Origin: a virus
Lineage: Duplodnaviria; Caudoviricetes
Direction: 5' to 3' (one strand)
IMG/VR virus record: IMGVR_UViG_3300011616_000006
Span: 1-64,000 of that record
DNA: 64,000 nucleotides
Part shown: one piece after another, positions 2,669 through 57,760 of the stretch
Layout: each line of letters starts with the position of its first letter
Position numbering within the stretch: position 1 is the first letter of the stretch
The notes under the pieces: model-generated
Database searches by the model: none
What the model was told of the DNA's origin: nothing
Seen by the model: only the letters and a program-made list of their open reading frames with translations
Position numbers and translations under genes: made by a program

Positions 2669-2710
2669 TTACTGCCCTTTCCTCTCCAGCAACACAACGG
2701 TTTCAACATG
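2669..2710 (-). pseudogene. Displaced original 3' end of rlmD (HVETVVLLERKGQ*)
   Basis: Reverse strand reads CAT GTT GAA ACC GTT GTG TTG CTG GAG AGG AAA GGG CAG TAA, homologous to HVESVVLMTRKNG* at the end of the intact rlmD. Confidence 0.85.
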
Positions 2711-2711: not shown

Positions 2712-2769
2712 GGTGAGTTGAAGAGATAGATTCAGCTTTTTGGGGTTGAGTTGATGGAAATATTACTAC

Positions 2770-2814
2770 AAAATCACACCTTATAGTCTAGTTGACGTAA
2801 AAGATGTGATTTTT
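2770..2814. terminator. Hairpin ending the defence operon
   Basis: AAAATCACA...TGTGATTTT inverted repeat 25 bp downstream of the last operon gene. Confidence 0.5.
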
Positions 2815-2839: not shown

Positions 2840-3274
2840 TTATTCCTGTGAAGTTGACTTATGTATAGATCTCACTAGGATGTCAATAATCCTCGGTGCA
2901 TATAAATCATAAATAATAGACCATGTTCCAGAATCTGAAAATGGTAATGCTACACCATCAGCATCTTCAATGCAATATTGATAAGCATTTCGATGTGTCA
3001 TAATATTTCTTATTTCTCGTATCCCATTTTCCTTATTATTCAAAAACAAGAATTCATCCTCTGTTAATATTTTCTTGTTTTTCAACTCTTCCAAATCCTG
3101 ATTAATATTCTGATTAAAATTCCCTCTTAATGATTTAAAAACCAATTCCATCGCATTAAATAAGATCAATATAGCCGCATAGTCCTCTTCCTCTTCATGT
3201 AGTCTCATAACAGTCGCAATCATATCTCCATAATAATGAGAATACCCCCAAATTATATCAATATTATTAATCAT
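2840..3274 (-). CDS. HEPN-like domain protein (putative RNase)
   Basis: RNIMTH (Rx4H) motif and N-terminal LFNAMELVFK helix; start moved to ATG 3274 (GGAGAGG RBS), overlapping the MTase stop. Confidence 0.55.
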   Translation of the reverse strand: MINNIDIIWGYSHYYGDMIATVMRLHEEEEDYAAILILFNAMELVFKSLRGNFNQNINQDLEELKNKKILTEDEFLFLNNKENGIREIRNIMTHRNAYQYCIEDADGVALPFSDSGTWSIIYDLYAPRIIDILVRSIHKSTSQE

Positions 3275-6985: not shown

Positions 6986-6990
6986 TTATT

Positions 6991-7926
6991 TCACTCCTTT
7001 AACCAATCTGCCAGTGATGGCAAACTTAATTCGTAATGTAATGATGCAATCTGTGATGCCACTGTTTTACGTGTAACCCGCGGAAAGGTATCATCCACAC
7101 AATACCGCTGTGTAGCCGAGCAATAATATTTTTGTTCAGAGTATTCCTGCAAATCTATGTATCCGTATGAGTACAATTTCGCACAAAACAAATCTAATGC
7201 TTCTCCATCAATTTTCTTACTGATGCGCTGAACTACTTCATTTAGCGAAATTGCACCTGCCTTTTCAGGCGCAACCTTGTCAATTCTCTTAATTACTAAT
7301 TCTCCCGCATCCAAACAATCAAGTTGTTCTAATGAGGAAATAGTTACATTTATAGCCGATGCACCAATACATTTAACTTCAAACCATCCATCAGAATACA
7401 TGAAATCTTGGTCTGCACCATCAGCTCCTACCCAGCCTTGTATAGCTGTCAATGTGAATTCATCAGAATCTATGCGTTCTTCTAAAAATAGTAATTCTCC
7501 GAGCAATCCTTTTTGAACACTCTCACTCATCACTCCACCACGTTGCGCTTCTAGTAGCTTGCTCCATTGCTTATATCTATTTATAGCTAATACTAACGCT
7601 TCTTTTTCATCTGTTGCCATTCTGGAGTATTCTATGACATCACAGCAGAGTATAGCAAACACATCTTGTTGTTCGTTTCGGAGTAACTCAAAAGATAGCG
7701 TCCAACGATCATCACTCTCTCGTCGTCGGCGACTTACTGCCATAGATTTCGACGATTCAATTGCATTTATTTCTGCATCACTAACGAGCAATAATGTTTT
7801 TTGACTAATAGATTGATAACCTATATACCATTCCAATGGATGCTTAGTATCAACTCGCAAAAAACCGCCGTCCTTGAATTTGATACCATCCCATTGCTTC
7901 TTAAGATTCTCTGGCGTTATCTTCAT
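6991..7926 (-). CDS. PD-(D/E)XK motif protein (DUF4420-like, MzaD-like)
   Basis: GLLGELLFL, W.G....QDF...FEVK and ISSLEQL motifs. Confidence 0.85.
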   Translation of the reverse strand: MKITPENLKKQWDGIKFKDGGFLRVDTKHPLEWYIGYQSISQKTLLLVSDAEINAIESSKSMAVSRRRRESDDRWTLSFELLRNEQQDVFAILCCDVIEYSRMATDEKEALVLAINRYKQWSKLLEAQRGGVMSESVQKGLLGELLFLEERIDSDEFTLTAIQGWVGADGADQDFMYSDGWFEVKCIGASAINVTISSLEQLDCLDAGELVIKRIDKVAPEKAGAISLNEVVQRISKKIDGEALDLFCAKLYSYGYIDLQEYSEQKYYCSATQRYCVDDTFPRVTRKTVASQIASLHYELSLPSLADWLKE

Positions 7927-10700
7927 TCGTCGTCCTCCTCATCTACATTATAGTAATTGCGGAACTCAACCAAATTGACCATGTAGTTCGCTGTTTTTTC
8001 TTCTCCATTGGCTGGAATTCCAATGCCAAGGGCAAAGAGATAATTAGGCACATTTACACCCTCATCAATTTGACTTCGAAGAATTCCCTTATCATCTTTT
8101 TTTACTTTGTCCACACAAACAACATGTAATATAAGGAGTGGATTACGCTTAATATTGAGATATGCCTTATCTGGAATATGGCGTGCTTTTGGCTTTGTTA
8201 TCCGAAACTTATCTTCAGCAATTTTCTTTTCATCTTCAGTCAAACCAATTTTTGCTGCACCACCGGCACCAACGCGAACCTTTGTTCCACTAATGCTAAT
8301 TTGTCTATTTGTTGCTTTAACGGCACGCTTTTCAGGTTTTATTTGTAAATCTTCTTCACCGCACTTTATCTTATAAGTTTCATCATCACTTCCTTCAGCA
8401 ATGAATACATCCCAATTTCCCATATCAACATCATCTCTTATAAAATCAGCCAATGCTACACCTTGGAAATTGAGTTGCCACGGATGAGTTACAAAATCTC
8501 GGAGAAGTTGCTCAACCTCGTCTTTGCTAACACCTTTCCAAAAATAACGGGCATCATTGCGCTTGGTGCGTACTCCTATATCGGGCAAACGTTTGACAAA
8601 ATCTTTAAAAACTTCTTCATTCGCAATTAACGAACTCTCATCAGATTTTAGGCGGGGTGTTTCAAGTAAGCGCCCTGAAACAGTAATAGGACGCTTCACA
8701 AATGTCGCTGCACGCATCTTATTTCTTGCAGTAACAATCAAAGATGCTGGATCTTGACGAACTTTGAGTCCGAAATCCATCGGTGTTAGGTTAGCGTTCT
8801 TCATTCGTGCAATTTCCAGTTTCAATTCCTCAGAAGCACTCGTTATGTAGCCATACCAATCAATCGCCTCAACACTAATCCAAATTTTAAATAAATCCTC
8901 ATAGTTTGGGCGATATCCGAACCACCGTCCCATTTGGAGCAATGTATCATACATCAGAGAACGACGATAAAAATAACTTACACATAATCCTTCTAAAGTT
9001 AATCCTCTGGAAAGGCTATTACCACCAACGGCAATGACCCGAAGACCGTCTTCTTTATGTTTAAAATAATCAAGGCTTGTTGCCCCACTCTGTTGGTTGA
9101 CAGCTCTAACATCAACCGGAGATACCGCTTTGAAAAGGTAACCTGATAAAAACGTATGCCACGATATTGTGACTCCAGACTTGCTTGCCGCTTCATAAAG
9201 CTTGTGTTTTGTCCATACTTCCTTAAGATATGCAATGTTTGATATCTTATCACTTTCGATTTCTAAAAGACTAGCGTAGTTTTGTAAATCCGAACGCACC
9301 TGTATTACCCAAGCTGTTGCTAAATCACGAATTTCATTTTGAACATCTGTAAAACGACTGACATGAATCATCATTGAACGATGTGATCGAACATCTCCTC
9401 GAAGATCCCGTATACCATTGACTAACAAAAAATATGCCATGGCTTCCTTCATGCTCGGTGGTAATTCCGTCACAAGGTGTCCTTTGCGATGATTAAAAGG
9501 AAAAAAAGAATTCATTTCCATTGGATAAATTGGTTCGAGAACGTCCTTGTACTTGGCAACTTCCCCTTCGTCACCACCAAAAATGTCTTCAGCTCCAATA
9601 TAATCTGTCGGTGGTGATAGAGCATAAATAAAGTCTCTCGGAAAAAGGTCATCCCCCCTCATTTCATCCGCACTATCAGGATTAATGAATATATTCGCAT
9701 ATGGTGTGGCAGTAATACCAAGATAAGAGGCTTGACGGAATAACTTAAGCAATTCTCGAATTGCCTTATTTATAGCTGTCGGGTCTTTTTCTGGATCGTT
9801 TGTATTTACAGATGCATTATCAGCTTCATCATCTATAAGTAAAAGAGATTTACTGATTGCACCTCTAGTATCAGCATTATTGCTTTTTAACCAACGAATA
9901 AGGTTGTTAAGTATACTCTTGTTCTTCTTGATTACAAAAACCACAGTTGTATTCACACTATGTAGAGAAAGACTAAGTTGGCGCAAAATATTTTTATCAA
10001 AGTCTTTTACAACTGAGGTAAAAGACTCAATCCTTTTTTCCTGCCCATATTTACCTACACCGACAGGGATATTTTCAATGTCACGTTTTGGGTCAAGAAG
10101 GTACTCGCTCTTTCTCCCTGAAAACTCTGCATCTAAACGCTCCTGTGTTTGTTGACGAAGATTTTCCATCATACCTGCAAGAACAATAATAACGTTATAG
10201 CCTGTGTCTGCCGCCTTGTTGCATATAGCAGTATAATTGGCCGTTTTCCCGGATTGTACATCACCAAGTACTAAACCGCGTCGTTGAAAGGATTCATCAC
10301 TTAAAGGATCTCCTAGCAAATCAACAATTTCATCAGATACACGATCAAGGCTACCTGTTACACGTGCATTCCAGCCTTTTACCTCTTCAAGATATGTCTT
10401 GTATCGTTTCCAAAAAAAGAAATCTAAGTCCGCACGACGCGCTGGAAGCCATGATTGATGCGGGCATTTACTATCAACGATAGCAATTCCTAAATCCATC
10501 TGAACAACAACCTTGACCTTTAGCCTGCGCCTAATCTCTGCGAATTCTCCATCGCTTACAGGATACAATGGCTGAATCAATTCACGTATCTTAATCGCCA
10601 TCTCCTCAAATTGTGCCTCAGTTGGCGGTGAATCCGGATACTCTTTATTGATGCTAGAAGAAATCATACCTTCCAATTGTTCAACATTACTTGCTGCCAT
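7923..10700 (-). CDS. Z1 domain SF2-helicase-like/endonuclease protein (MzaC-like)
   Basis: GDVQSGKT, IDDEAD, TATPYAN, SRGLTLEGL and DTLLQMGRWFGYR motifs. Confidence 0.92.
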   Translation of the reverse strand: MAASNVEQLEGMISSSINKEYPDSPPTEAQFEEMAIKIRELIQPLYPVSDGEFAEIRRRLKVKVVVQMDLGIAIVDSKCPHQSWLPARRADLDFFFWKRYKTYLEEVKGWNARVTGSLDRVSDEIVDLLGDPLSDESFQRRGLVLGDVQSGKTANYTAICNKAADTGYNVIIVLAGMMENLRQQTQERLDAEFSGRKSEYLLDPKRDIENIPVGVGKYGQEKRIESFTSVVKDFDKNILRQLSLSLHSVNTTVVFVIKKNKSILNNLIRWLKSNNADTRGAISKSLLLIDDEADNASVNTNDPEKDPTAINKAIRELLKLFRQASYLGITATPYANIFINPDSADEMRGDDLFPRDFIYALSPPTDYIGAEDIFGGDEGEVAKYKDVLEPIYPMEMNSFFPFNHRKGHLVTELPPSMKEAMAYFLLVNGIRDLRGDVRSHRSMMIHVSRFTDVQNEIRDLATAWVIQVRSDLQNYASLLEIESDKISNIAYLKEVWTKHKLYEAASKSGVTISWHTFLSGYLFKAVSPVDVRAVNQQSGATSLDYFKHKEDGLRVIAVGGNSLSRGLTLEGLCVSYFYRRSLMYDTLLQMGRWFGYRPNYEDLFKIWISVEAIDWYGYITSASEELKLEIARMKNANLTPMDFGLKVRQDPASLIVTARNKMRAATFVKRPITVSGRLLETPRLKSDESSLIANEEVFKDFVKRLPDIGVRTKRNDARYFWKGVSKDEVEQLLRDFVTHPWQLNFQGVALADFIRDDVDMGNWDVFIAEGSDDETYKIKCGEEDLQIKPEKRAVKATNRQISISGTKVRVGAGGAAKIGLTEDEKKIAEDKFRITKPKARHIPDKAYLNIKRNPLLILHVVCVDKVKKDDKGILRSQIDEGVNVPNYLFALGIGIPANGEEKTANYMVNLVEFRNYYNVDEEDDE

Positions 10701-12162
10701 GCCTCGTGTCTCCTTTTCGATACTTATTTATAAGCTGAGGATAGTGAATAAATGGGTCTGAAGTAGCAAGACTTTCTAATAACGCAGCTTTTCCCGCATC
10801 TGTTGAAATCTGCTCGAGCAAACCAGTCAGAATCCTTTCAACCTCCTGTATGCTTGTTTCCGTTTCATTTTCAACCTGCCTCTCGGAAGTCAAATCAATA
10901 TATAGTTGGTTGAGCGGAATGTTGTTTTCAATAATTCTTAGCAACGATTCCATATTATGCTTTACTTGTGGTGTGGAATCCGAAAACATATCAACCAATG
11001 GGTGATCACGATTGATACTGTAATAGAAACCTCCCTGTTTTCCTTTGAATCGATCCCAAATATGAACGACCGAATCGTGAGTTTCCTTCTTTCCTCGATA
11101 CTCCCAAGTTCTCTTACTATATGCCGCAAGCCTCTCTATTACTGATGTAAGGTTATTTCTTACCTCCTCAGGTGGCATTGCAGTTGATTTCTTAATATCC
11201 AATGTCCAAAGGTCATCTAACTCATTCGGAATATCCACTTGAACCCTTGCTAATTTAGACAGCTCGCCTTGCCGCATCATGCGAAACCATGTTCCCCAAA
11301 CCAAAAGTCTTTTATTGCGGTATATATAGAAGCCTTGTCTTTTACGAAGACCTTCTTTCCCGCCAAGTGCTGTTATCTCATTTGCCGACAATGCCGATAT
11401 GTGGGGAAGTATGTATGGACGAATAATAACCGCTACTCCTTCAATATTCATAACTTCATCTGCCATCACCTGTGTATTTCGCCTCGCCAAAAAAGGGTCT
11501 GCTGGTTCAATAGGGACGTTGTTCATTTTAATCTGCATCTTCTTAAGACCATTTTCACCATCAATATACCGATGAAAAACCAAGGAAAGATGCGAACGAA
11601 CATCATCCATCTTTTTTCCCATCGAGCGATTGAAATCAAGTTCTCCAATTTTGAGTCTATCGAGATTTTGCCATATAACAAGTGTTCCCGAATCCAGTTT
11701 TTTTAACTCTTCAATGCATGGGATAGCTTCTATCTCATCATCTGAATCAAGAATCAGCAATGACCAATCCTTAGTATTAATAACATGGTCAATATCCCAA
11801 CGCCGCCCTTCAATATGCTCCCCTTGTTTACTAATAACTGTCAGTATTCGACATTGAGAAAGAGAGGCCGTTTTTAACCCCAAACCAAAACGGCCGAGAT
11901 CACTGGCTTCACGTTTTTCATTCGGACTTTGACTACCATAACGCATAGCTGCTTCAAGTTCAGAAGCAGTCATCCCTATACCATTATCCAAAATTGCAAT
12001 ATACGAATCCCCAACTGGAAAGAAAAAAATATCAACACACGAAGCAAAGGCTGATACACTATTATCAATAATATCAGCAATTGCTGATTCAAGCGTATAA
12101 CCTATCGCGCGAGTAGATTCTATAAGAGTTGGTGCATAAGGTGGCAACGGAACACTTTTCAT
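10687..12162 (-). CDS. MORC/MutL-like GHKL ATPase (HATPase_c_3; MzaB-like)
   Basis: ADIIDNS, DNGIGM, GRFGLGLK and GT motifs. Confidence 0.9.
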   Translation of the reverse strand: MKSVPLPPYAPTLIESTRAIGYTLESAIADIIDNSVSAFASCVDIFFFPVGDSYIAILDNGIGMTASELEAAMRYGSQSPNEKREASDLGRFGLGLKTASLSQCRILTVISKQGEHIEGRRWDIDHVINTKDWSLLILDSDDEIEAIPCIEELKKLDSGTLVIWQNLDRLKIGELDFNRSMGKKMDDVRSHLSLVFHRYIDGENGLKKMQIKMNNVPIEPADPFLARRNTQVMADEVMNIEGVAVIIRPYILPHISALSANEITALGGKEGLRKRQGFYIYRNKRLLVWGTWFRMMRQGELSKLARVQVDIPNELDDLWTLDIKKSTAMPPEEVRNNLTSVIERLAAYSKRTWEYRGKKETHDSVVHIWDRFKGKQGGFYYSINRDHPLVDMFSDSTPQVKHNMESLLRIIENNIPLNQLYIDLTSERQVENETETSIQEVERILTGLLEQISTDAGKAALLESLATSDPFIHYPQLINKYRKGDTRHGSK

Positions 12163-12590: not shown

Positions 12591-14156
12591 TTACAACTCA
12601 ACTTCAATCTCTATTCCAGACTTAAACCGAACCAACAACTGCTTATCATGCACCATGACACGTTCCACCAACTTTCTAACCAGCTTATCGTCATACTCAG
12701 TAATGCCGTTGCCTTGCTTTTTCAGAAATTTCTCCATGTCCTTAATCCGCTGCCTTTTGGTGTGTCGTTCTGCGTTATGCTCCATTGTTTCCTGCTTGAG
12801 CTCTCGTAGGCGGTAAATTTCATCAACCATCGACTCGTAACCCTCTTTTGAATTCGCTTGCTTGATAAGTTCATTTTGCAGTTCCGTAAGCTGATGCTCA
12901 ATACTATCCGTATCCTTATCAAACCTCTCACCAAGAACCGTGGCAATGTTGTCCATGAGTATCCCAAGGAATTCATCCCGTTCCGAAACAGTCTGGTTTA
13001 TCGCCTTCAAAACAGCATTCTGTAAATCTGATTCAGCAATAGTAGGTGCTGTACATTCAGCTCCCTTTTCCTCCAGTCTACTCACACATCGCCAGACAAT
13101 AGATTTCTTACCCCTATTATTCCAATGTACTCGGCGATAAATATCACCGCATTCGCTGCAAAATACAATACTTGAAAGTGCATATCTGGAGCTGTAAACT
13201 CGCTTACTGCCATTTCCCGTCCGCAGATTAGCTCTGCGGGCAATCTCCTCCTGCACCTGCATATATAATTCCCTCGGAATAATGGCTTCATGAGAATTTT
13301 CTACATAATATTGTGGAACAATGCCGTTATTGACCACTCGCTTCTTTGAAAGAAAGTCGACCGTGTATGTCTTTTGGAGTAAGGCATCGCCAATATACTT
13401 CTCATTCTGAAGAATTTTCTTAACCGACTCTGGTCTCCATCTTGGTTTGTTTGCCGCCGTCAGTATGCCATCTGCTTCTAGTCCTCTACCAATCTGCAGA
13501 AGGCTTGCTCCTTCCAAATATTCTCGGTAAATCCGCTTTATAATCTCCGCTTCCTCTGGAACAATCACCAACTTTTTATTCTCGTCCTTGGTATAGCCCA
13601 TGAAACGGTTATGATTGATTTGCATCTGCCCTTTTTGAAAGCGGAAGGCGATACCCATTTTTACATTTTGACTGGTGGAGCGTGATTCCTCCTGAGCAAT
13701 AGACGCCATAATAGTCAGCATTAGCTCTCCCTTGCTGTCGGTGGAAATAATGTTCTCTTTCTCAAAAAACACTGGGATATTCTTTTCTTTCAGCTGTCTT
13801 GTGTAGTTCAAAGTATCAAGTGTATTTCTCGCAAATCTGCTCACGGACTTGGTTATCACATAATCGATTTTACCAGCCATGCAATCTTCAATCAGACGGT
13901 TAAAATCTGTTCGCTTCCTTGTAGTAACGCCACTGGTAGCCTCATCTGCATATATGCCAGCAAACTCCCATTCTGGATTCTGTTGTATATGACTCGTGTA
14001 ATGACTAACCTGAGCTTCATAGCTCGTAAGCTGTTCTTCATCATCCGTTGACACTCTGCAATATGCCGCCACTTTTAATTTTTCTCTGACCACACCACTC
14101 ACAGTAGATGCCATCCGTGATCGTGCCGGAATTACTGATATTATAGGTTGCTCCAT
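12591..14156 (-). CDS. Large serine recombinase (resolvase + recombinase + Zn ribbon)
   Basis: YCRVST, KSVSRFARN, NEKYIGD, CSECG..WRC motifs. Confidence 0.95.
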   Translation of the reverse strand: MEQPIISVIPARSRMASTVSGVVREKLKVAAYCRVSTDDEEQLTSYEAQVSHYTSHIQQNPEWEFAGIYADEATSGVTTRKRTDFNRLIEDCMAGKIDYVITKSVSRFARNTLDTLNYTRQLKEKNIPVFFEKENIISTDSKGELMLTIMASIAQEESRSTSQNVKMGIAFRFQKGQMQINHNRFMGYTKDENKKLVIVPEEAEIIKRIYREYLEGASLLQIGRGLEADGILTAANKPRWRPESVKKILQNEKYIGDALLQKTYTVDFLSKKRVVNNGIVPQYYVENSHEAIIPRELYMQVQEEIARRANLRTGNGSKRVYSSRYALSSIVFCSECGDIYRRVHWNNRGKKSIVWRCVSRLEEKGAECTAPTIAESDLQNAVLKAINQTVSERDEFLGILMDNIATVLGERFDKDTDSIEHQLTELQNELIKQANSKEGYESMVDEIYRLRELKQETMEHNAERHTKRQRIKDMEKFLKKQGNGITEYDDKLVRKLVERVMVHDKQLLVRFKSGIEIEVEL

Positions 14157-14932
14157 TTATTCTCCTCCCCATATTGTTTATCGTTTATCAACACAAACGT
14201 CAGCGTGCCGCTTGATGCAACCTCAATGCGTTTGATTATGTTCGCCATAAATTCGCCATCAAACTCCGTTGGTATATTCTGCAGTGCAGCAATTAACTTT
14301 CCTGTTTGATATTTAAAATCATCAATCGTTGTCTGCGAATATGCATACTCTGCTTGTTTGAATGGGTCATCAAATTTTTTCCGGATTTGAATGTCTGTTT
14401 TATCGGACTTCGATTGTACATCGGAAATATCTATCTGAGCGACCATTTTTATTAGCGCATCTTCTAATCTGTTTTCAGAAAACGTTGGGCCGTCACAATA
14501 GCTTACGCCGTCCAATGCTCGTCTGCTGCATATCCAACGTTCTTTTCTGTGTTCCCAATATCTCCGATATTCACTTCCACACTTAGAGCAGAATATTTTT
14601 CCCAAGAAAGGAGAACGTCCAGAACCGTCTTTTGAAAAATAATTTTTATCCCGACCAAGTGCCATGGCTTTCAGTTGTCGAATCTCATAGGCTTTGTTCC
14701 ATAGTTCTTCGCTGACGATGGCTGGATAAAAGTCATCACCCATATAGAGCCTTCTGTCTAGCATTCTCCCAAGTGTTGCATGTGTACGATCAATCCCAGC
14801 TTTATTACCAGCCTCCTGTATGGCACATCCTGACACATACTCCTCAAAGAGGATTTGAATTTGTTTTGCTTTAACAGTATCCAGCACAGCCTTGCCATTT
14901 TCAATTTTATAGCCATATGGTATGTGTCCCAT
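14141..14932 (-). CDS. Recombinase/Zn-ribbon protein lacking the catalytic resolvase domain
   Basis: PYGY, YMGDDFYPAIV and CSKCG motifs; no YxRxS; translationally coupled to both neighbours. Confidence 0.85.
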   Translation of the reverse strand: MGHIPYGYKIENGKAVLDTVKAKQIQILFEEYVSGCAIQEAGNKAGIDRTHATLGRMLDRRLYMGDDFYPAIVSEELWNKAYEIRQLKAMALGRDKNYFSKDGSGRSPFLGKIFCSKCGSEYRRYWEHRKERWICSRRALDGVSYCDGPTFSENRLEDALIKMVAQIDISDVQSKSDKTDIQIRKKFDDPFKQAEYAYSQTTIDDFKYQTGKLIAALQNIPTEFDGEFMANIIKRIEVASSGTLTFVLINDKQYGEENKWSNL

Positions 14933-16503
14933 TATCTCACCATCCTTTCCTTTAGAAATAATCCGCATTTCAATTGAAAACCAACTTCTGTCGGTGAAAG
15001 TACAGTAATGCCATCTGCAAACTCCACAAAAATCTCATCGCTGTATTCTTCCGTGATTTCCGTCTTATTAAGATGCTTAAGCAGTGCTTCCGCTTCATGA
15101 AGAAGACTTCTTTCACCATCTACATAACAATGCATTGCCAGTGCCTCGTCTTTCAACTTAGTAATCTCCATTTGGAGCAGGTTATACTTTTCGTTAAAAA
15201 GAGCAGGCTCCAAGTAGCCTTTGGACATGAGTCCTGTTAGCACTTGTACCTGCTCAGAGTTTTCTCTTATTTGTTTTTGGATTACCAGTAATTCTGAATT
15301 ATTTTCGTTGCCCTCAGTGTTCTTTAGCTCTGCAATCAGTGGCTTTAATATTACATTTCTTCCGCTATAGAGCCGATTCATCATTGTCACAAAAGCAGTT
15401 TTCAGGTTATCCTCACGGATATAAATCATGGAGCATTCTGTACCGCCCGAATCAATATGCTTGTTACAGCACCATGCGATATACTCACTAGGCCTATGTT
15501 TCATATGAATTCTTCTTTTGAAAGTCCCACCGCATTCGCCACATATAATTTTACTTGAAAAGGCATATCGTTTTCCGTATTTCCTGCTACCTTTTTCAAT
15601 CCCTTTCTCTTTTCCATGCTGCATTATAATGCGGTCCACTGCCACAAAGTCCTCACGGCTGATAATCGCTTCATGATGATTCGTAACATAATATTGCTCT
15701 TCCTCACCGTTATTTTTTCTTCTTGTAAAACTATCATCGGTATAAGACTTTTGAAAAAGTGCATCACCAATATATTTTTCATTTTCAAGAATTGCCCGGA
15801 CACTTTTATATGACCATGCACCACCACGCTTTGCTAAGATTCCATCATCGTTAAGTCTGTTCGCAACCGCATGTGTTCCGCTCCCAGCTAAAACCTCTGC
15901 AAAAATACGTTTCACAATCGGTGCTTGTTCGGGGTTTGGAATTAGCGTCTTTCCATCATAATCATATCCATATGGTGAGCTTCCAAGTTTGTATGTCCCA
16001 TTTTGAAAACGTTTCTTAACACTCCACTTGTTGTTCTTGGATATGGACACCGACTCCTCTGCTGCAAGGGAACTAAGGATGGACAAAATCAATTCACTGT
16101 CCATCGTGCCAGTGTTGATGTTTTCCTTTTCAAATATGATGGAAACACTGAGGTCTGTCATCTTACGAACAATCTCTAAGCAATCTTTTGTATTTCTCGC
16201 AAATCGACTAATGGATTTTGTAACAATTAAGTCCACTTTGCGATTTTCGCAGTCACGTATAAGATCTAAGAGACCATTTCTATTATCCTTTTTTGTTGCA
16301 CTGACCCCTTCGTCAAAATATAAGCCTACAAAGTCCCAAGCAGAGTTGGATTTGATATAAGCTGTATAATGTGTTCTTTGATTTTCAAGACTTGACAATT
16401 GTTCTGTGCTGTCCGTTGACACTCTGCAGTATGCAGCAACACGGAGCTTTCTTTGTGGTGCAAGTGATGAATCAGCAATCGAATTTATTTTCGTCACTTT
16501 CAT
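14932..16503 (-). CDS. Large serine recombinase
   Basis: YCRVST, KSISRFARN, NEKYIGD and CGECG motifs; AGGAGG RBS before ATG 16503. Confidence 0.95.
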   Translation of the reverse strand: MKVTKINSIADSSLAPQRKLRVAAYCRVSTDSTEQLSSLENQRTHYTAYIKSNSAWDFVGLYFDEGVSATKKDNRNGLLDLIRDCENRKVDLIVTKSISRFARNTKDCLEIVRKMTDLSVSIIFEKENINTGTMDSELILSILSSLAAEESVSISKNNKWSVKKRFQNGTYKLGSSPYGYDYDGKTLIPNPEQAPIVKRIFAEVLAGSGTHAVANRLNDDGILAKRGGAWSYKSVRAILENEKYIGDALFQKSYTDDSFTRRKNNGEEEQYYVTNHHEAIISREDFVAVDRIIMQHGKEKGIEKGSRKYGKRYAFSSKIICGECGGTFKRRIHMKHRPSEYIAWCCNKHIDSGGTECSMIYIREDNLKTAFVTMMNRLYSGRNVILKPLIAELKNTEGNENNSELLVIQKQIRENSEQVQVLTGLMSKGYLEPALFNEKYNLLQMEITKLKDEALAMHCYVDGERSLLHEAEALLKHLNKTEITEEYSDEIFVEFADGITVLSPTEVGFQLKCGLFLKERMVR

Positions 16504-16585
16504 ATCAATTTCCGCCTCCTTTCCAGCCGAATTTGGCTTCGGCTTGTGTGACATATTAACTCTAAAGGGCTATAATAGCAAGCAA

Positions 16586-29356: not shown

Positions 29357-29692
29357 TCACCTCTCAGTCGCTTCTATTTTTTCAGCCAGCACTTCCACAT
29401 ACATTCCTCTGCCTTTTACATCCTCCACTGACAAAATTCGAAACCGCCCATCCTCACAGGTAATGACTAGGGACGTGGCGATTTCAAGTGTGGGCAGCTT
29501 GCGGAAACAAAACAAGGCGGTCGCGGTGGAGAATGTTGCCCGATTTGCCCATTTTTCATTGCCATGCCGATCCTCTTTGTATGCCCGTACACTTGCAAGC
29601 ACCGTATCACCGGTGTTTACAAATCCCTCGTCATCCTTTATCGACTCGGTAGAAATAATATCAATAAAGGCGTTCATCTTGCCAAAACTCAT
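29357..29692 (-). CDS. Head closure / head-tail adaptor
   Basis: Position, size and the RFRILSVEDVKGRGMYVEV motif. Confidence 0.8.
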   Translation of the reverse strand: MSFGKMNAFIDIISTESIKDDEGFVNTGDTVLASVRAYKEDRHGNEKWANRATFSTATALFCFRKLPTLEIATSLVITCEDGRFRILSVEDVKGRGMYVEVLAEKIEATER

Positions 29693-30039
29693 GGCTGCCA
29701 CCTCCGATCCAGGCGAAGGAGCAGATTGACTGTATTCCAAACCTGCTGTCCAGCACCTACGTTGTCAGCAAAGAAACCTCCGGTCGAACCATCTCTACTC
29801 TCATAGAAATGGCTCGACAGCATAATGACGGCTTGCTCTGTGGTTGGCGGGAAGCGTGACGCTTCACTCATTTCGCCTTCGGCTGTTTCTCCCGAATAGT
29901 ACCCTTCAGATAAATGCTGATAGCTTTCCGCATAGGAAACAGCAGCGCGGATAAATCCCTTTAGCAGTTCATCATCCACATCGTGTTCCAGTATGAGATT
30001 GGCTTTTACTTTTGGAAGTAAATCATCAATTACAGCCAT
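29689..30039 (-). CDS. Head-tail connector (gp6-like)
   Basis: VKANL....DDELL..FI.AA and AVIMLSSHFYESR motifs. Confidence 0.85.
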   Translation of the reverse strand: MAVIDDLLPKVKANLILEHDVDDELLKGFIRAAVSYAESYQHLSEGYYSGETAEGEMSEASRFPPTTEQAVIMLSSHFYESRDGSTGGFFADNVGAGQQVWNTVNLLLRLDRRWQP

Positions 30040-30041
30040 AT

Positions 30042-31217
30042 TTAAGCCATCTGCAAAAGCTGAATGCCTTCGGAAAGAATGACCTTTCCGTCAACACGTT
30101 CGGTCGCAAGGAATCCCACCTGCCCATTTCCAGCATACAGTTCGTTAAGCCTTTGCAGTGTTCTGCCTGCACGGTCGGCAATCCAGTAATTAGAGAAATC
30201 GCCAAAAGCAACAGGCAACGCACCTGTGTCAATGGTTGGTGCATAAGGACTGGTATAGAGCGGATAACCGAAAAGTCTATCCGGCTGGCCTTGTACCAAA
30301 GCAGGCTGCCAAAGATACTGCCCGTTTGAGTCCTTCAGCTTACGGAATGCCGCCACTGTAGAATCGTTGGTAAGAAATACAGCATTTCTGCGATATGGAG
30401 TTTTGAGAGAATACACAAGGCTGATAATATCATCAAAGGTAACTGATGCACCGCTTGTAGTTGCACCCACATGACCACCGCTTGCAGTAAAAATACCAGT
30501 CGGTCTGCCTGTGCCGGTACCGATGCAGAAAGCCTCCTCTTCAGCCACACCGATTGCTCTTGAAAATTCAGCGGCAAGATAAGCCTCCAGATTGAACATA
30601 TTGTCGGCAAGCAACTCCACGCTCACTTTTACAAGATCGGTCAACTTATAGGCATCCAAGGTTTTCTGGTCAAAAGTCACTCCGCTTTCAGGAATAGCGC
30701 CATTTTCAGCTACCCAAGTCGCAACGGAAGGTGTGGCTGCAATGGGAACCTTACGCTCAACAGAAGTAGTGATGGTTTTTGCCAGCTTACGGATAATGTT
30801 ATCCTCATTAAGTCCTTGAACGATTGTGGTCTCAAATTCAGTCGGTACAAGATAGCCGCCATCAGCGTCCACACCCTCAGATAAAACATTTGTGACCTGT
30901 CTGCCTCTCATAGCAGCAAAGAAATCACGGCGGTACTCATCACGGGCGCGGCCGGTCTTGGTATCCTCGCCGGGTTTCTGCGGCTGATTCGTGATTGCAT
31001 TAGAGGTAGGGGCATTCAGTTCGGCATCAATCGCCGCTTGACGTTCCAGTCTTTCCACCTCTTTGCCAAGAGCCACAACATCGGACTCCATCCTTTCATA
31101 GGTAGCCGTATCCTCGGCAGACAAAAGTCCGTCATTGCCACGCTTAGTATCAAGATAGGCTTTTGCCGCCTCCCATGCCTTTGCTCGTTTTTCACGCAGT
31201 TCTAAAATCTTGCTCAT
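30042..31217 (-). CDS. Major capsid protein, HK97 family
   Basis: GGYLVP, WVAE, LKDSNGQYLWQP and FGDFSNY motifs. Confidence 0.95.
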   Translation of the reverse strand: MSKILELREKRAKAWEAAKAYLDTKRGNDGLLSAEDTATYERMESDVVALGKEVERLERQAAIDAELNAPTSNAITNQPQKPGEDTKTGRARDEYRRDFFAAMRGRQVTNVLSEGVDADGGYLVPTEFETTIVQGLNEDNIIRKLAKTITTSVERKVPIAATPSVATWVAENGAIPESGVTFDQKTLDAYKLTDLVKVSVELLADNMFNLEAYLAAEFSRAIGVAEEEAFCIGTGTGRPTGIFTASGGHVGATTSGASVTFDDIISLVYSLKTPYRRNAVFLTNDSTVAAFRKLKDSNGQYLWQPALVQGQPDRLFGYPLYTSPYAPTIDTGALPVAFGDFSNYWIADRAGRTLQRLNELYAGNGQVGFLATERVDGKVILSEGIQLLQMA

Positions 31218-52174: not shown

Positions 52175-52987
52175 TTAAAATAAACTATTTACTTCGTCTA
52201 TCAGATTTCTCAAATGATGACATGCTTCTAACAAATCAGTACCAATCAACGAAAAGATAATATTTATTTTTTCGTTGTAATTATCAGGATGAATTAGAAA
52301 CCTATCTATCATTTGTACAGCTTTTTTCTCATTGAGGCAGTATTGTTCATTTAGTGCAAAAAGCACTTGATTGAGTGCAGAAATAGAACGTACAAGGTGA
52401 GCTACCACATAATAAACATCGTTTCTTGAAACATTGTTTTCAGCAAACATTAGAGAAAAACCAGCTTCGAAAGAAAAGAAATGTATTATTGGTTCCTTCA
52501 AATTTTGTGGATACTCCTCTGCAATCTTTTTTAGTTCTTTTATTTCATCACTTTTACTCCACAGCAGTTTACAAATAGCAAGTTCACCCATATACATTAC
52601 ATTGAGATAGGCATGTGGATGCCCTGTTTGATAATGTGAAGTGACAATTCCTTCTCGGCAATCTTGAATAGATTTTTTCACTCGGCTTATATCCCGCAAA
52701 ATAAGGTCAATATGCACACTGTCAGTACTAAGCCAACATCCGCCATTCACCCATGCTCCCCACTCTCCGGGTCTTGCAAGTAGGTTTGGTCTATGCTCTT
52801 GGTCTAAAAATTGCATTCGTTCTTCTAACAAAGACAAGTCAAGCGTTCGTTTGTCGTAATACAATCCAATATCAATATCAGAGTCAGGATTGTGAGTACC
52901 CCTTGCACGTGATCCGCCAAGTACAATTGCCTCAAGTCCTTTTATGTCCTTTAATGAATTAACAATATTTTCAATAATACTTTTCAT
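52175..52987 (-). CDS. Nucleotidyltransferase domain protein (Pol-beta superfamily, DUF4037-like C-terminus)
   Basis: LGGSRARG....DSDID motif; WG.WVNGG.WL; Q.LFALN..Y..NEK. Confidence 0.85.
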   Translation of the reverse strand: MKSIIENIVNSLKDIKGLEAIVLGGSRARGTHNPDSDIDIGLYYDKRTLDLSLLEERMQFLDQEHRPNLLARPGEWGAWVNGGCWLSTDSVHIDLILRDISRVKKSIQDCREGIVTSHYQTGHPHAYLNVMYMGELAICKLLWSKSDEIKELKKIAEEYPQNLKEPIIHFFSFEAGFSLMFAENNVSRNDVYYVVAHLVRSISALNQVLFALNEQYCLNEKKAVQMIDRFLIHPDNYNEKINIIFSLIGTDLLEACHHLRNLIDEVNSLF

Positions 52988-53066: not shown

Positions 53067-54530
53067 CTACTTCAATTTGTGTATTTTGCAATCCCGTATC
53101 TCATATACAATATCCGCCACATTATCAATTAACTTTTTATCATGCGAAACAAATAAAATTGTTCCTGCATAATTCTTAATCATACTTTCCAATGCTTCCA
53201 TACTAAAGATATCAAGATAATTAGCTGGTTCATCCATAAGCAAGATATTATACCGTCCTAACAACATTTTAGAAAGCAGTAGTTTAATTATTTCACCGCC
53301 AGATAATACAGATAGGTCTTTATTGATATCATTTTGTCTAAATCCCATTGATGCTAAGACCCCACGTATTTCTGATACTTGATAATCACAATCCTCTTGC
53401 ATAAAAGAAATAACAGATTGATTTGCTATAAACTGATATCCTGTTTGAGCAAAGTAGCCAATTACCGCCTTTGGTGAAATGGTAAGCATTTCGTTGTTGG
53501 ATAAAACCATCTTTAATAATGTGGTTTTACCCGTTCCATTACCTCCAGTCAAAGCGACTTTTGCACCAAGAGGAATATTAAAGCTGGCACTTTCAAATAT
53601 CACACGCTCTCCAAATTTCAAATTGATATTATCACCCACAACTGGAAATTTATTGTGTAATTCTAAGGCTTTACTTTGTCTGAAACGAATATTGACAATA
53701 CGTTCGGAGGCACTAAGATCCCCCATTTTCTCGATTTTGCGTTCCATGTTTAAGGCGGCATTATATATTTTTTTCTGTTTGCTACCAGTACTTTTCTGAT
53801 GTCCTAATCTGCCGGTACTTTCATTAGAATTTTTCTTCACAGTTCCTTTTTGTTTATTATCAATCTGTCGTGCTTGATTCCGTTTCTCTTCTGCTGCACG
53901 TTCTAATCGCTCACGTTCCTGTTTAATCTGTTCATATTGCTTAGCTTTCTGTTCACGTTCTACCTCTTTTTGATTAAGATAATCACTATACCCACCCCAA
54001 TATTCAGTAATTTTTCCGTCTTTTAGTTCCCATATTTTATCCACAACCTTATCCAAAAAATAACGGTCATGACTAATAATCAACAATGCCCCATCAAACG
54101 ATTTTAGATGTCCAATTAATAACTCTATTCCCGCACGGTCAAGATGGCAAGTTGGCTCATCTGCAAACAAAGCATGAACTTGCTTGGATAAAGCTATTGC
54201 AATTTTAGAGCGTGTTTCTTCACCTCCGCTCATAGTATCTTTCTGTAAGCCGGACACACCTAAGCGTGATAGCATAGCGGGGTCATAAGCTTCTTCTAAC
54301 ATAATACTTTCAAGTTGTTGTATATAAGCTATTTCTCCAAAACGCTGTATTTTACATTCCGACGGGGCAATTCCCCCAGCTAGAATATTTAAGAGAGTGC
54401 TTTTTCCTTCACCATTATTGCCGATTAAACCAATTCGGTCATATGAGTACAATTCTAGTTCATCAATATCTAAAACATCACGTCCTGTATATTCAACGCG
54501 GATGTCATTTGCTTTTATAATTAATTCCAT
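53067..54530 (-). CDS. msr: Msr-family ABC-F ribosomal protection protein (Msr(D)/Msr(E)-like)
   Basis: 487 aa, two ABC domains ([19 protein letters not shown]; [16 protein letters not shown]); [12 protein letters not shown]. Confidence 0.92.
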
Positions 54531-54650: not shown

Positions 54651-55856
54651 TTAATCCAATTTTCTGATTTCAGCAATCAAGGGACAAATTGCAGCAATGA
54701 TGATAACTAAAATACCTGATATGAGAAACCAAATATTCACACCGATTCTATCAGCAAAAAAACCGGAAAGGATTAAACCAATAGGCATAGCCAGTGACAC
54801 AACACTCCCTGTAAGAGAAAACACACGTCCTAAATATTCAGGTTTGATTTTTTCTTGAAAAAGGGCTGTTTGAACACCACTGTAAAACGGAACTGATAAA
54901 CCCATCATTGCACAACAAATTACGAAAATAATAAAGCCATTTTGGGGAAGCAATCCTGAAATAGTTAAACTTATTCCCATCATGAAAATAGATGCTGTTA
55001 TTAGCAAAACTCGTTTTTTTAATCTACCCAAAAGTCCTAATATCAGACCTCCTGCCAACATGCCAGAGGCGTATGCTATTTCGGTAATTGATATATGCAA
55101 CGGTGTACCCCCAAAATATTCCATGCTGATTAAAGGGTATAGTGCGTTAATTGGCATATAAACAAACATATATATAGTGCCAATAAGCAACAATGCAAAT
55201 AGTCCTTTATTTCCTTTCAGAGCAAGAAAGCCTTCTTTCATCTCTTTCATAAAGTTAAATTTCGCACTTTTTTGTTCTTTGTTAAGTTTGGGAATACGCA
55301 CAAATGCCACTGTGATACACGCAATAATCGCGCCTAAAATGTCCACGCCAATGATTGCATTTAATTCCCAAACAGAATATAAAAATGCCGCTACGGCAGG
55401 ACTGAGTATATAGCTTATTGACTGCAAGGATTGACTGTAACCTGCGCATTTCGTCAGCTGTTCTTCCGGCACTATAAGAGGTGTAGCCGCACTCAGTGCA
55501 GGAGAATGAAAAGCCGTTCCAAGGCTTCGGATAAACAACACTACCATAACCATCCAAACTGAAAGTTCCATATGCAAAGCAATAACAGATAGTACAGCGC
55601 CTGCTGTTGCAATAATCAAATCAGCACCAATCATTATCTTTTTTCTATCATAACGGTCAACTAATACCCCTATCATAGGTCCGAAAACAGCATATGGGAG
55701 AAATCCAACTAATGAAGCAATCGAAAGCACCATCGCCGAACCTGTTTTTTCTGTAAGGTAAAATATTAACGCCATTTGCAGAACAGCACTAGTAATCAGA
55801 GATACTGCCTGACCTGACCATATTGTAAAAAAAGTAAGTTTCCAATTCCTTTTCAT
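54651..55856 (-). CDS. mef: Mef(A)-family macrolide efflux MFS transporter
   Basis: GQAVSLITSA, PEEQLTKCAGYSQSLQS and EKIKPEYLGRVFSL, all characteristic of Mef(A)/(E). Confidence 0.95.
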   Translation of the reverse strand: MKRNWKLTFFTIWSGQAVSLITSAVLQMALIFYLTEKTGSAMVLSIASLVGFLPYAVFGPMIGVLVDRYDRKKIMIGADLIIATAGAVLSVIALHMELSVWMVMVVLFIRSLGTAFHSPALSAATPLIVPEEQLTKCAGYSQSLQSISYILSPAVAAFLYSVWELNAIIGVDILGAIIACITVAFVRIPKLNKEQKSAKFNFMKEMKEGFLALKGNKGLFALLLIGTIYMFVYMPINALYPLISMEYFGGTPLHISITEIAYASGMLAGGLILGLLGRLKKRVLLITASIFMMGISLTISGLLPQNGFIIFVICCAMMGLSVPFYSGVQTALFQEKIKPEYLGRVFSLTGSVVSLAMPIGLILSGFFADRIGVNIWFLISGILVIIIAAICPLIAEIRKLD

Positions 55857-55899: not shown

Positions 55900-56100
55900 T
55901 TATCAATGATAATGGAAGCAATAAAAAAGCAGACCCAAGTCCACAATGTGACTCTGATCTGCATACATACAATATAGAAGCAGGCTAAAGAAAGGTATAG
56001 TCAAAATGACCATTCCTTACCGTAACTAATGCTCAATACTGCGAAAATACGCACAACAAAAAAGCCTATCATCATGGATAGATTTTACTTTTTTATTGCC
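55900..56100 (-). promoter_or_regulatory. mef leader/attenuator region
   Basis: Hairpin with U-tract (CTATC..GATAGGCTTTTTT, ~56058-56086) and further stems between the leader peptide and mef. Confidence 0.65.
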
Positions 56101-56103
56101 CGA

Positions 56104-56130
56104 TTATCTCAAACGCATTGATGCTGTCAC
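56104..56130 (-). CDS. mefL: Macrolide-sensing leader peptide MTASMRLR
   Basis: AGGAGG, then GTG ACA GCA TCA ATG CGT TTG AGA TAA; same peptide as the mef(E) leader, with an RLR arrest motif. Confidence 0.9.
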   Translation of the reverse strand: MTASMRLR

Positions 56131-56171: not shown

Positions 56172-56200
56172 ATTATATCATAAAAAGTTTGACCCGTCAA
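56172..56200 (-). promoter_or_regulatory. Sigma-A promoter of the mef-msr operon
   Basis: TTGACG-17 bp-TATAAT with extended TG. Confidence 0.85.
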
Positions 56201-56406: not shown

Positions 56407-56522
56407 CAGTGGATATGTTCCCTCACACAGGCAACCCCCAATTTCAACAGTGGATATATTCCCACACACTTCCAAGCCTTGAGTTGACTATATTTTTTAT
56501 CAGTAGATATGTTTCCGCACAA
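56407..56522 (+). repeat. Three 22-bp degenerate direct repeats, each an inverted copy of the rlmD attachment arm
   Basis: CAGTGGATATGTTCCCTCACAC (56407), CAGTGGATATATTCCCACACAC (56448), CAGTAGATATGTTTCCGCACAA (56501) vs rlmD GAGTTGATATGTTTCCGCATAC (56670-56649, -). Confidence 0.85.
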
Positions 56523-56523
56523 C

Positions 56524-56567
56524 AAAAAAAACGGCAAAACCAGTTTCATAACTAGTTTTGCCGTTTT
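56524..56567. terminator. Bidirectional terminator supplied by the element downstream of rlmD
   Basis: AAAACGGCAAAAC...GTTTTGCCGTTTT. Confidence 0.8.
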
Positions 56568-56602
56568 CTCAATTTTCTCTAAACCCCCAGTAAATCAGCC
56601 TT

Positions 56603-57760
56603 TCAGCCGTTTTTCCTTGTCATCAAGACAACACTCTCAACATGCCCAGTATGCGGAAACATATCAACTCCCCAAGCCCCCTTAGCTCCATACCCCAACC
56701 TCTCAAACACCTTCAAATCCCGCGCCAACGCCTCCGGCCCACAAGAAATATAAACCACCTTCCGTGCCTTCACCGCTGCCACAGCCCTCATAAACTCCTC
56801 CGTACTACCACTCCGCGGCGGATCCATAAACACCACATCCAACGTCTCCCCCTGCTGCGCCATCTGATTCATAAACTTCCCGGCATCATTACAGAAGAAC
56901 TTAATATTCTTAACCCCATTAATCTTAGCATTACTATTAGCATCCTTGACCGCATCCTTATTCAGTTCAACGCTAATCACCTGCCCGGCCTTCTTACTGG
57001 CAATAATCCCAATTGTCCCGATCCCGCTATAAGCATCCAGCACAGTCTCTTTCCCGGTCAGCCCGGCCAACTCAATTGCCTTCTGATACAGTACCTCCGT
57101 CTGAACCGGATTCACCTGATAAAACGACTTCGACGATATCCGGAACCGGCAGCCGCACAACACATCCTCAATATATCCTTTCCCATACAGCACCTGCTCC
57201 CGATCCCCCAGCACCATACTCGTCACACGCCCGTTAACATTCTGAATCACGGTAGTAATCTCCGGATGTTTCTGCCGCAGCGCCTTCACAAAATTATTCT
57301 TCGACGGGAAAATCGGCGATGCCGTAACCAGCACCACCATGATCTCATTCGTAGCAAACCCACGCTTGACCAACACATGGCGCAAAAGCCCATATCCACT
57401 GTCCTCATCATAAGTACGAATCTTAAACGATTTCAGCATCCCGCGAATTGTACCGATAATCTCATCCGCCTTTTTATCCTCAATCTTACACTGCTCCACC
57501 GGCACCAGCTTATGCGTCCCGGCCTGATATACACCCGAGATCGCCTCGCCCTTACGGAAGCCAAACACTGCATGAACCTTATTCCGGTAATGATAAGGAT
57601 TGTCCATTCCGACAATCGGATATACCTTACAAAAACTCCCCAGCAGCTTCTGCATATTTGCCTGTTTCACTTTCAACTGTTCCTGATATGGCACATCCAG
57701 ATACTGACAGCTACCACACTGCTTAAATACCGGACATCCCCCATTCTTCTTTCCCGCCAT
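56603..57760 (-). CDS. rlmD: 23S rRNA (uracil-5)-methyltransferase RlmD/RumA (no TRAM domain); C-terminus supplied by the prophage
   Basis: C....CGSC, SFYQVN, DAYSGIG, DPPRSG, YISC and DMFPHT.HVE motifs. Confidence 0.95.
   Translation of the reverse strand: MAGKKNGGCPVFKQCGSCQYLDVPYQEQLKVKQANMQKLLGSFCKVYPIVGMDNPYHYRNKVHAVFGFRKGEAISGVYQAGTHKLVPVEQCKIEDKKADEIIGTIRGMLKSFKIRTYDEDSGYGLLRHVLVKRGFATNEIMVVLVTASPIFPSKNNFVKALRQKHPEITTVIQNVNGRVTSMVLGDREQVLYGKGYIEDVLCGCRFRISSKSFYQVNPVQTEVLYQKAIELAGLTGKETVLDAYSGIGTIGIIASKKAGQVISVELNKDAVKDANSNAKINGVKNIKFFCNDAGKFMNQMAQQGETLDVVFMDPPRSGSTEEFMRAVAAVKARKVVYISCGPEALARDLKVFERLGYGAKGAWGVDMFPHTGHVESVVLMTRKNG
56637..56645. repeat. Prophage attachment core (rlmD-proximal end), TCAACATGC
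   Basis: Direct repeat of 2703-2711. Confidence 0.85.

Follow-up and report, generated by a model that had tools for sequence, protein, structure and literature searches.

An rlmD-integrated prophage and its right arm

The window, by which we mean the whole 64-kb stretch of DNA that was analysed, contains a prophage of ~54 kb that sits within the last codons of an rlmD/rumA-type methyltransferase gene. The prophage frame proposed in the sequence-only reading was borne out: the same 9-bp block is present at both junctions, the phage brings its own replacement 3′ end for the gene (translated as HVESVVLMTRKNG-stop), and the displaced host end is left at the other junction (translated as HVETVVLLERKGQ-stop). 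Synteny with genomes of the same genus extends over rlmD and its upstream neighbour but not over the left flank. The following features were located at the two junctions.

56603 to 57760, minus strand: rlmD/rumA-type rRNA uracil-5-methyltransferase gene, the integration target (Pfam PF05958 and methyltransferase families)
56637 to 56645, unstranded: crossover identity block at attR, TCAACATGC on the plus strand, identical to the 9 bp at 2703–2711
2703 to 2711, unstranded: crossover identity block at attL, TCAACATGC, the 9 bp common to both junctions
56603 to 56636, minus strand: phage-borne replacement rlmD 3′ end, the P′ half of the att site; its translation ends in ...HVESVVLMTRKNG-stop and a homologous block is kept in all related ends
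2669 to 2702, minus strand: displaced original rlmD 3′ end (B′ arm); reads HVETVVLLERKGQ-stop over 2669–2711, like the intact rlmD ends of relatives
56649 to 56667, minus strand: rlmD target half-site beside the crossover (B arm), the model of the repeats, coding for V-D-M-F-P-H-T
2712 to 2810, minus strand: prophage P arm with two decayed repeat sites (2756–2766 and 2797–2807) and with TGAGTTGA at 2714 and 2747 (plus strand), from an alignment to the L126 P arm
56526 to 56569, unstranded: phage-borne hairpin terminator ending rlmD transcription
56586 to 56608, unstranded: conserved block CCCAGTAAATCAGCCTTTCAGCC across the replacement stop codon, nearly invariant in 12 aligned ends

Repeat search recovered the three 22-bp copies reported previously in the P′ arm, which start at 56407, 56448 and 56501 (41 and 53 bp from start to start) and are separated by spacers of 19 and 31 bp. 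Together with a short box between the second and the third copy, they define four elements.

56410 to 56428, plus strand: R1, outermost arm repeat, T-N-GATATGTTCCC-NNNN-AC (repeat search; score of 24.1 with the foreign-site matrix described below)
56451 to 56469, plus strand: R2, middle arm repeat, GATATATTCCC-NNNN-AC (same position in 12/12 related ends; core identity 0.97)
56480 to 56488, plus strand: X box, TGAGTTGAC, between R2 and R3 (GAGTTGAC invariant, exactly 28 bp after R2 in 12/12 ends)
56504 to 56523, plus strand: R3, innermost arm repeat, GATATGTTTCC, abutting the terminator (core identity 1.0; 132–136 bp from the crossover core in 12/12 ends)

The inverted match of the repeats to rlmD was confirmed, with 79% complementarity between the arms 56408–56431 and 56646–56669 and with 17 matches out of 18 between 56502–56519 and 56652–56669. 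Counted in the register used originally, copies 1, 2 and 3 match the rlmD 22-mer at 17/22, 16/22 and 18/22 positions, in agreement with the earlier counts, and a register shifted by 1 nt gives 17, 17 and 18 of 22. The translations VDMFPHTG, VDIFPHTS and VDMFPHN(K) are correct, and the bias of the differences towards third codon positions is real, given that all four variable positions within the first 18 bases are third positions. A coding role of the array was considered and rejected, because 41 and 53 are not multiples of 3 and the copies therefore lie in three different frames, giving no single peptide. Within the 64-kb window, the exact core GATATRTTYCC is limited to four occurrences, namely the three repeats and the rlmD site. 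A 17/22 match to the rlmD half-site (GTTGATATGTTTTCG...) was also observed inside the HATPase gene (10975–10996, minus strand), where it reads VDMF in frame; its matrix score is 12.9–15.1 and the match is probably due to chance.

Two claims about the surroundings of the array held only in part. The terminator at 56526–56569, which had been called bidirectional, is clear on the minus strand, for rlmD, and has a weaker T tail on the plus strand. The positions given for TGAGTTGA (56480, 2714 and 2747) are right, but three copies are at chance level, 2.8 being expected in the window. As far as alignments can tell, the significance of TGAGTTGA rests on conservation and not on count, with GAGTTGAC recurring exactly 28 bp after R2 throughout the twelve ends. 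The X box also reads as a −35-like TTGACT.

Several side observations were made around the junctions. The block CAGTAAATCAGCC at 56586–56608 is almost invariant in 12 related arms. A 10-mer, CAGTAAATCA, is also found inverted at the displaced host end (2672–2681, minus strand), spanning the Gln and stop codons, possibly by chance. Beyond the displaced rlmD end, two further rlmD-end-like relics lie in gene orientation on the minus strand (2590–2645). The first is composed of AATATGTTTCC-GATT-AC directly followed by CATGGTGGAG, reads NMFPITMVE-stop and has a matrix score of 13.2 (2595–2605); the second is GATATGTATGT at 2632–2642. The left flank bearing these relics is not syntenic with relatives, and the contig stops within it at window position 49; the flank may be what is left of another stacked element.

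Beyond the left-end cargo, two full-length large serine recombinase genes flank a short paralogue, and all three are transcribed towards the left junction and the P arm, in the same order as in relatives.

14932 to 16554, minus strand: first large serine recombinase gene, 540 aa (Pfam Resolvase, Recombinase and Zn_ribbon_recom)
14141 to 14968, minus strand: middle recombinase paralogue, 275 aa, with DNA-binding domains only and without a catalytic domain (Pfam Zn_ribbon_recom and a weak Recombinase match; aligns to residues 187–388 of the 521-aa recombinase)
12591 to 14156, minus strand: last large serine recombinase gene, 521 aa, nearest the P arm (Pfam)

The middle gene of related phages encodes a protein of ~140 aa consisting of the recombinase domain alone, compared to 275 aa with a zinc ribbon here. 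A second recombinase–paralogue–recombinase module is present in the genome that holds the window (contig C28, 71103–75188), the last recombinase of which is 50% identical to the 521-aa protein; no repeat array was seen at this module (C28, 71–75 kb), the target of which may be the rlmD paralogue at C28:16879. The four core half-sites of the window system are unlike one another, which fits two recombinases sharing the work, by analogy with binding assays in streptococcal phages (PMC13651849).

The cargo at the right end comprises mef (54651–55856), an msr(D)-like ABC-F gene (53067–54530) and a nucleotidyltransferase gene (52175–52987). The mef leader matches Rfam sRNA_1300 (55920–56127, outside the array) and is accompanied by a strong promoter at 56200–56172, and the region upstream of mef is 71–75% identical to streptococcal and Erysipelothrix phages. 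A defence island at the left end (3267–12162), between the P arm and the recombinase genes, encodes a C5 cytosine methyltransferase and AIPR, DUF4420, Z1 and HATPase_c_3 proteins.

Conservation of the repeats in two arm architectures

Pattern scans of species genomes and metagenomes and a BLAST-type search of 400 same-order genomes yielded eleven further element ends. With the window, the set consists of twelve ends, the others coming from two species genomes, one further genome contig and eight metagenome contigs. The repeats are present in these related ends at fixed positions, as had been expected of a functional array, and the landmarks coincide in register: R1 at 79, R2 at 120, GAGTTGAC at 148, R3 at 173 and the crossover core at 305–309. 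Exceptions concern R1 only, which is found at 69 in two elements, has an extra copy at 39 in one and is absent in one. R1 and R2 are 41 bp apart except in two elements, where the distance is 51 bp (41 bp plus one helical turn); the R2–R3 spacing is 53 bp. Among the 7–8 non-redundant ends, pairwise identity reaches 0.97–1.0 in the R2 and R3 cores, 0.88 in R1 and 1.0 in the downstream AC and in GAGTTGAC, compared to 0.29–0.52 in the spacers. As judged from these alignments, R1–R3 are shown to be under purifying selection with their helical phase kept, given the identity of 0.88–1.0 in the motifs and of 0.29–0.52 in the spacers. The terminator stems of related elements differ in sequence yet still pair.

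Six of the 12 ends adjoin a host rlmD-type gene, and in each of these the coding motif lies inverted at 330–332, encoding the host peptides VDMFPHTG, VDMFPNTS, VDMFPQTV, IDMFPRTN, VDMFGQGV and VDMFCMCN. The DNA adjoining the other six is not rlmD, and in several of them it leads on to cargo and a serine recombinase gene; all six are attP-like or mosaic junctions, and repeat-like sites are absent from the P arms of these six possible free attP forms. The window-type architecture is rare in IMG/VR, where a scan requiring the X box between two repeat cores returned no match, and was found in only 2 of the 400 genomes of the same order. In the element L002 (= L024, genome G050), a second, partial copy of the module was observed ~1.1 kb upstream of the array (395–530), with a GACATGTTTCC-like site, a terminator, a CCTTTCAGCTATCT block and a small gene between; this has the appearance of an arm that was duplicated or stacked. 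The genome holding L023 also carries the three-gene module, and the recombinase genes at the L031 and L028 junctions are only 31–35% identical to those of the window, so that the arm module may, on sequence comparison, travel between different enzymes.

The invariance of the X box and R3 bears on the proposal that the array works through transcription, either as an outward promoter formed by X and R3 (TTGACT-18-TATGTT) for a short RNA or an rlmD antisense transcript, or as an RNA itself. A 9/12 promoter-like match is indeed found at 56484–56513, and both hexamers are invariant in the 12 ends. Against this, the −10 hexamer is poor, R1 and R2 have no −35 partner, the sites of the second group described below have no X box, and a transcript would run directly into the terminator. 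The small-RNA array suggested in the sequence-only reading fared no better, as the consensus fold is negligible and not conserved (−2.8 kcal/mol), no Rfam family matches the array and the promoter-like match is weak. We regard any such transcriptional role as highly unlikely. A further candidate, in which R2 and X would be the relic of a hybrid site composed of a target half and an inverted P half, is suggestive in its layout but was rejected since the pseudo-core matches at only ~4/10 positions and does not generalise.

A second architecture was found by scanning IMG/VR for two cores 25–55 bp apart. The scan gave 69 loci, of which 31 (30 distinct arms) are attachment sites and the remainder are unrelated coding repeats. 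In these 31 contigs, the crossover core is preceded by two sites, or by three in two of the contigs, in the orientation of the rlmD motif, so that the order is sites, core and then a replacement end reading HVE... The sites start 54–55 and 93–96 nt from the core; in variants these distances are 104/54 and 114/64, differing in 10-bp steps. Spacings are thus 39–41 or 50 bp and the nearest distances to the core 54–55 or 64 bp. An inverted copy in the P′ arm is present in only 2 of the 31 contigs. Read 5′ to 3′, the motif points at the crossover in both architectures. The window itself retains traces of the P-arm arrangement: its P arm carries two decayed sites that match the motif core at 8/11 and 7/11 positions and both keep the downstream AC; they lie 56 and 97 nt from the crossover core, where intact sites stand in relatives (matrix score 8.4 for the site at 56 nt). 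In several elements, R2 of the window type equals the distal P-arm-group site over 17 nt.

The recombinase–short paralogue–recombinase module was identified in 10 contigs of the P-arm group, 2.6–7.4 kb upstream and co-oriented. The encoded proteins are 58–68% (last gene), 48–56% (first) and 41–51% (middle) identical to those of the window. Because the three-gene module is shared and its last gene is 58–68% identical, these phages are, by sequence, the closest relatives of the window prophage. We read the two architectures, from sequence alignment, to mean that the sites switched arms in the course of evolution and that their presence in at least one arm is required. No arrays are seen in PV036457, PV036455 and Javan105, the phage records closest in recombinase sequence, all of which stop at the last recombinase gene; similarly, phage phi1605 has its mef cassette directly after the recombinases and is uninformative on arm sites.

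These comparisons also bear on whether the repeats are mere scars, that is, non-functional pieces of the rlmD 3′ end captured or duplicated by aberrant recombination and passively inherited. The P′ arm plainly derives from rlmD coding sequence, rlmD-end-like relics are present in the left flank (2595–2605), and the 17-nt identity of R2 with the distal P-arm-group site suggests common descent. Passive inheritance is nevertheless very improbable, since the motif columns are kept at 0.88–1.0 identity next to spacers at 0.29–0.52, the spacing changes in 10-bp steps, and where sites have decayed, as in the P arm of the window, intact ones stand in the other arm.

Target mimicry and the proposed reader of the repeats

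The same logo, T-N-GATATGTTYCC-NNNN-A-C, was obtained from 29 distinct window-type sites and from 53 P-arm-type sites, and the T at −1 and the A/C at +5/+6 are shared by both groups even though they lie outside both search patterns. The logo bases are codon positions 1 and 2 of V-D-M-F-P-x-T plus the third positions of GAT and ATG. They are better explained as the bases that do not vary among rlmD alleles, on which a recombinase can rely across hosts, and the third-position pattern therefore needs no sampling of host alleles. The idea that the repeats were drawn from the alleles of different hosts is not supported, as the bases kept are those invariant among alleles, and the repeats do not track the allele of their own host: they match it at 4.75 of 14 variable positions, compared to 4.3 for other hosts. 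A record of earlier hosts is disfavoured by the same comparison, as well as by positions that are fixed by descent.

A position matrix was built only from 42 IMG/VR sites of the P-arm group and run over the 6.55-Mb genome that holds the window (13.1 million positions). The half-sites of the three rlmD-family genes of this genome took ranks one to three, with 30.8, 27.7 and 27.3 bits, the half-site in the window being second (27.7 bits). R1 ranked fourth (24.1), R3 eleventh and R2 twelfth of the 13.1 million positions. Since a matrix derived from foreign phage sites gives the top three places to the rlmD half-sites, phage arm sites and target half-site are, in terms of sequence, the same recognition element. 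The target motif is also shared by the two further rlmD-type genes, of which one has another serine recombinase gene at a distance of 10 kb (C28:16879; C52 19564, 29373–30602), and no repeat array was seen beside either paralogue. The hosts of L034 and L023 have natural targets that lack the CC invariant in the repeats, indicating that the repeats are more constrained than target recognition alone would require.

This extra constraint is one point in favour of a different binder, such as an excisionase-like directionality factor, a phage regulator or a host nucleoid protein, with the likeness to rlmD being a consequence of captured sequence. Conservation and phasing demonstrate function without naming the protein that binds, the arm module also stands beside recombinases only 31–35% identical to those of the window, and the same arm contains further conserved blocks (X and the CAGTAAATCAGCC block). 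The logo, however, keeps exactly the informative positions of the target half-site, and a phage-site matrix picks the three rlmD-type targets as the best in 6.55 Mb, an agreement that would be hard to maintain across long divergence without a shared reader. Binding by such another protein is consequently possible but rather unlikely.

The very close likeness to the target half-site, in an rlmD hotspot crowded with stacked elements (PMC13651849), also brings to mind decoy or immunity sites, which had been put forward previously and which would titrate the integrase of incoming rlmD-targeting elements or draw their insertion. The repeats have neither a crossover core nor a second half-site and so cannot recombine, and secondary insertions within them were looked for and seen in 0 of the 12 ends. 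In the larger group, moreover, free phage genomes carry the sites in the P arm, and a decoy for the lysogen makes little sense there. Decoy sites are hence among the least probable accounts.

Among the four functions raised in the sequence-only reading, accessory recombinase-binding sites are the only one that the comparison favours, given the conserved motif, the helix-phased spacing, the diverging spacers and the presence of sites facing the crossover in either arm. We propose, with a probability of roughly 0.55, that R1–R3 are arm-type accessory binding sites for the DNA-binding domains of the prophage recombinases or of the middle paralogue that lacks a catalytic domain. Each repeat would copy the outer 17–19 bp of the rlmD target half-site without the crossover core and would bind one DNA-binding module, that is, a recombinase domain with or without zinc ribbon, which is also the reader of the rlmD half-site. 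The bound module may belong to either full-length recombinase or to the middle paralogue. With sites whole helical turns apart, the bound proteins would sit on one face of the DNA, and the occupied array might fold the arm onto the core complex and thereby influence synapsis or the choice between integration and excision, in a manner likened to the arm sites of lambda Int or to the accessory sites of resolvases. Both the identity of the reader and the effect of binding are inferred from sequence features.

The middle paralogue, with its DNA-binding domains only, is the obvious candidate reader of R1–R3. Against this assignment, the middle proteins of relatives are only ~140 aa long, and phages of the phi-m46.1 type appear to have a middle gene too, yet phi-m46.1 and phi-SsuSC05017_rum lack the sites. 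Besides the CC kept more strictly than in natural targets and the arm module beside recombinases of only 31–35% identity, three further observations weigh against accessory sites in general. The sites are single half-sites and not dimer sites; streptococcal phages of the phi-m46.1 type, with the same target and related recombinases, have no significant mimic sites; and the distances to the core differ greatly between the architectures (~45–85 bp versus 123–217 bp), so that there is no single fixed geometry.

Relation to known attachment systems

Large serine integrases have been described as needing no auxiliary DNA (PMC3783163). In the only DNA-bound structure solved for a large serine integrase, that of LI, each of the 25 bp of the half-site is touched by the recombinase and zinc-ribbon domains, with the zinc-ribbon motif at positions 16–24 in attP and 11–19 in attB (PMC3783163). 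The copied motif lies ~13–28 bp from the crossover, depending on the crossover point within the 9-bp block, and by analogy with this structure is within reach of the two domains. A118/LI, phiC31 and Bxb1, which share the Resolvase, Recombinase and zinc ribbon architecture of the window's enzymes, have simple att sites of 40–50 bp. Unlike such sites, in which the conserved sequence stays within ~25 bp of the crossover, the phased elements found here extend to 100 bp in the P-arm group (31 contigs) and to 230 bp in the P′ arm of the window type (12 ends).

The arm-type sites of lambda attP are direct repeats in the phage arms, three of them in the P′ arm, opposite a simple bacterial site. Likewise, the repeats of the window are direct repeats confined to the phage arms and absent from attB, tens to hundreds of bp from the crossover, with three in the P′ arm. 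In lambda, the tyrosine integrase has a separate N-terminal domain for reading the arm sites, which differ in sequence from the core sites, whereas the enzymes here are serine recombinases with no separate arm-binding domain known, and the arm sites are not distinct from the core-type half-site but copy it.

Closer in enzyme family, sites II and III of Tn3/gamma-delta res and site II of Sin carry the crossover half-site motif, on one side and at fixed spacing, and Sin site II uses direct repeats. Such accessory sites are dimer sites in both partners and serve as a topological filter for resolution. The window's enzymes belong to the same serine superfamily, and the repeat logo likewise equals the target half-site motif, recombinase binding being a prediction from this match. 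In contrast to the res-type sites, those found here are single half-sites 39–53 bp apart in the phage partner only, the bacterial site having just its own half-site, and they belong to an integrase system.

The nearest described elements are phi-m46.1 and the rum prophages of Streptococcus suis, which share with the window the insertion in the last rlmD/rum codons, the replacement gene end, the three-gene recombinase module and the mef-msr cargo. Both phage integrases of phi-m46.1-type phages bind the att sites and are needed for excision (PMC13651849). The phi-m46.1 recombinases are only ~36–40% identical to those of the window, and S. suis relatives of this phage annotate a hypothetical protein between the two recombinases, so that the middle gene is apparently present there too. 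Copies of their own rum half-site in the adjacent arm were not above shuffled controls for phi-m46.1 and phi-SsuSC05017_rum, and the phi-m46.1 attL arm has no mimic sites; on account of the null result for these two phages, no covariation across lineages is claimed. The streptococcal rum phages have conserved arm repeats of their own (L021, 1480–1560; L022, 1900–1990), an inverted pair GGTGGGTAC...GTACCCAC flanking TGGAAA-type boxes plus a third repeat, TGGAAATAGAA, and in neither phage are these significantly like the rum half-site. Arm repeats are not described in the literature on phi-m46.1 and the S. suis rum prophages, and target-like arm sites are not mentioned in that on rumA-targeting elements, recombinase triplets, the gut phage order of the closest records or serine-integrase site recognition, the coverage of which is incomplete.

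A bolder extension of the accessory-site proposal, which we put forward only tentatively from the sequence comparison, is that this lineage builds a higher-order, lambda-like intasome around a serine-integrase crossover. The middle paralogue or spare recombinase subunits, seated on the phased half-site copies, would then control synapsis or direction, and evolution could relocate the sites between the arms with their function retained. If true, this intasome would be the first large-serine-integrase system dependent on auxiliary DNA sites.

Large serine integrases are valued, and in wide use for genome engineering, on the understanding that two short sites suffice and that auxiliary DNA is dispensable. 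Phased copies of the target half-site, together with a DNA-binding-only paralogue, in a widespread lineage of gut and streptococcal phages suggest that this enzyme family is subject to a layer of control that is still unstudied and that may act on directionality, target capture or regulation. These phages bring resistance cargo (here mef-msr) and defence islands to a shared hotspot, and the control of their integration therefore bears on the spread of this cargo.
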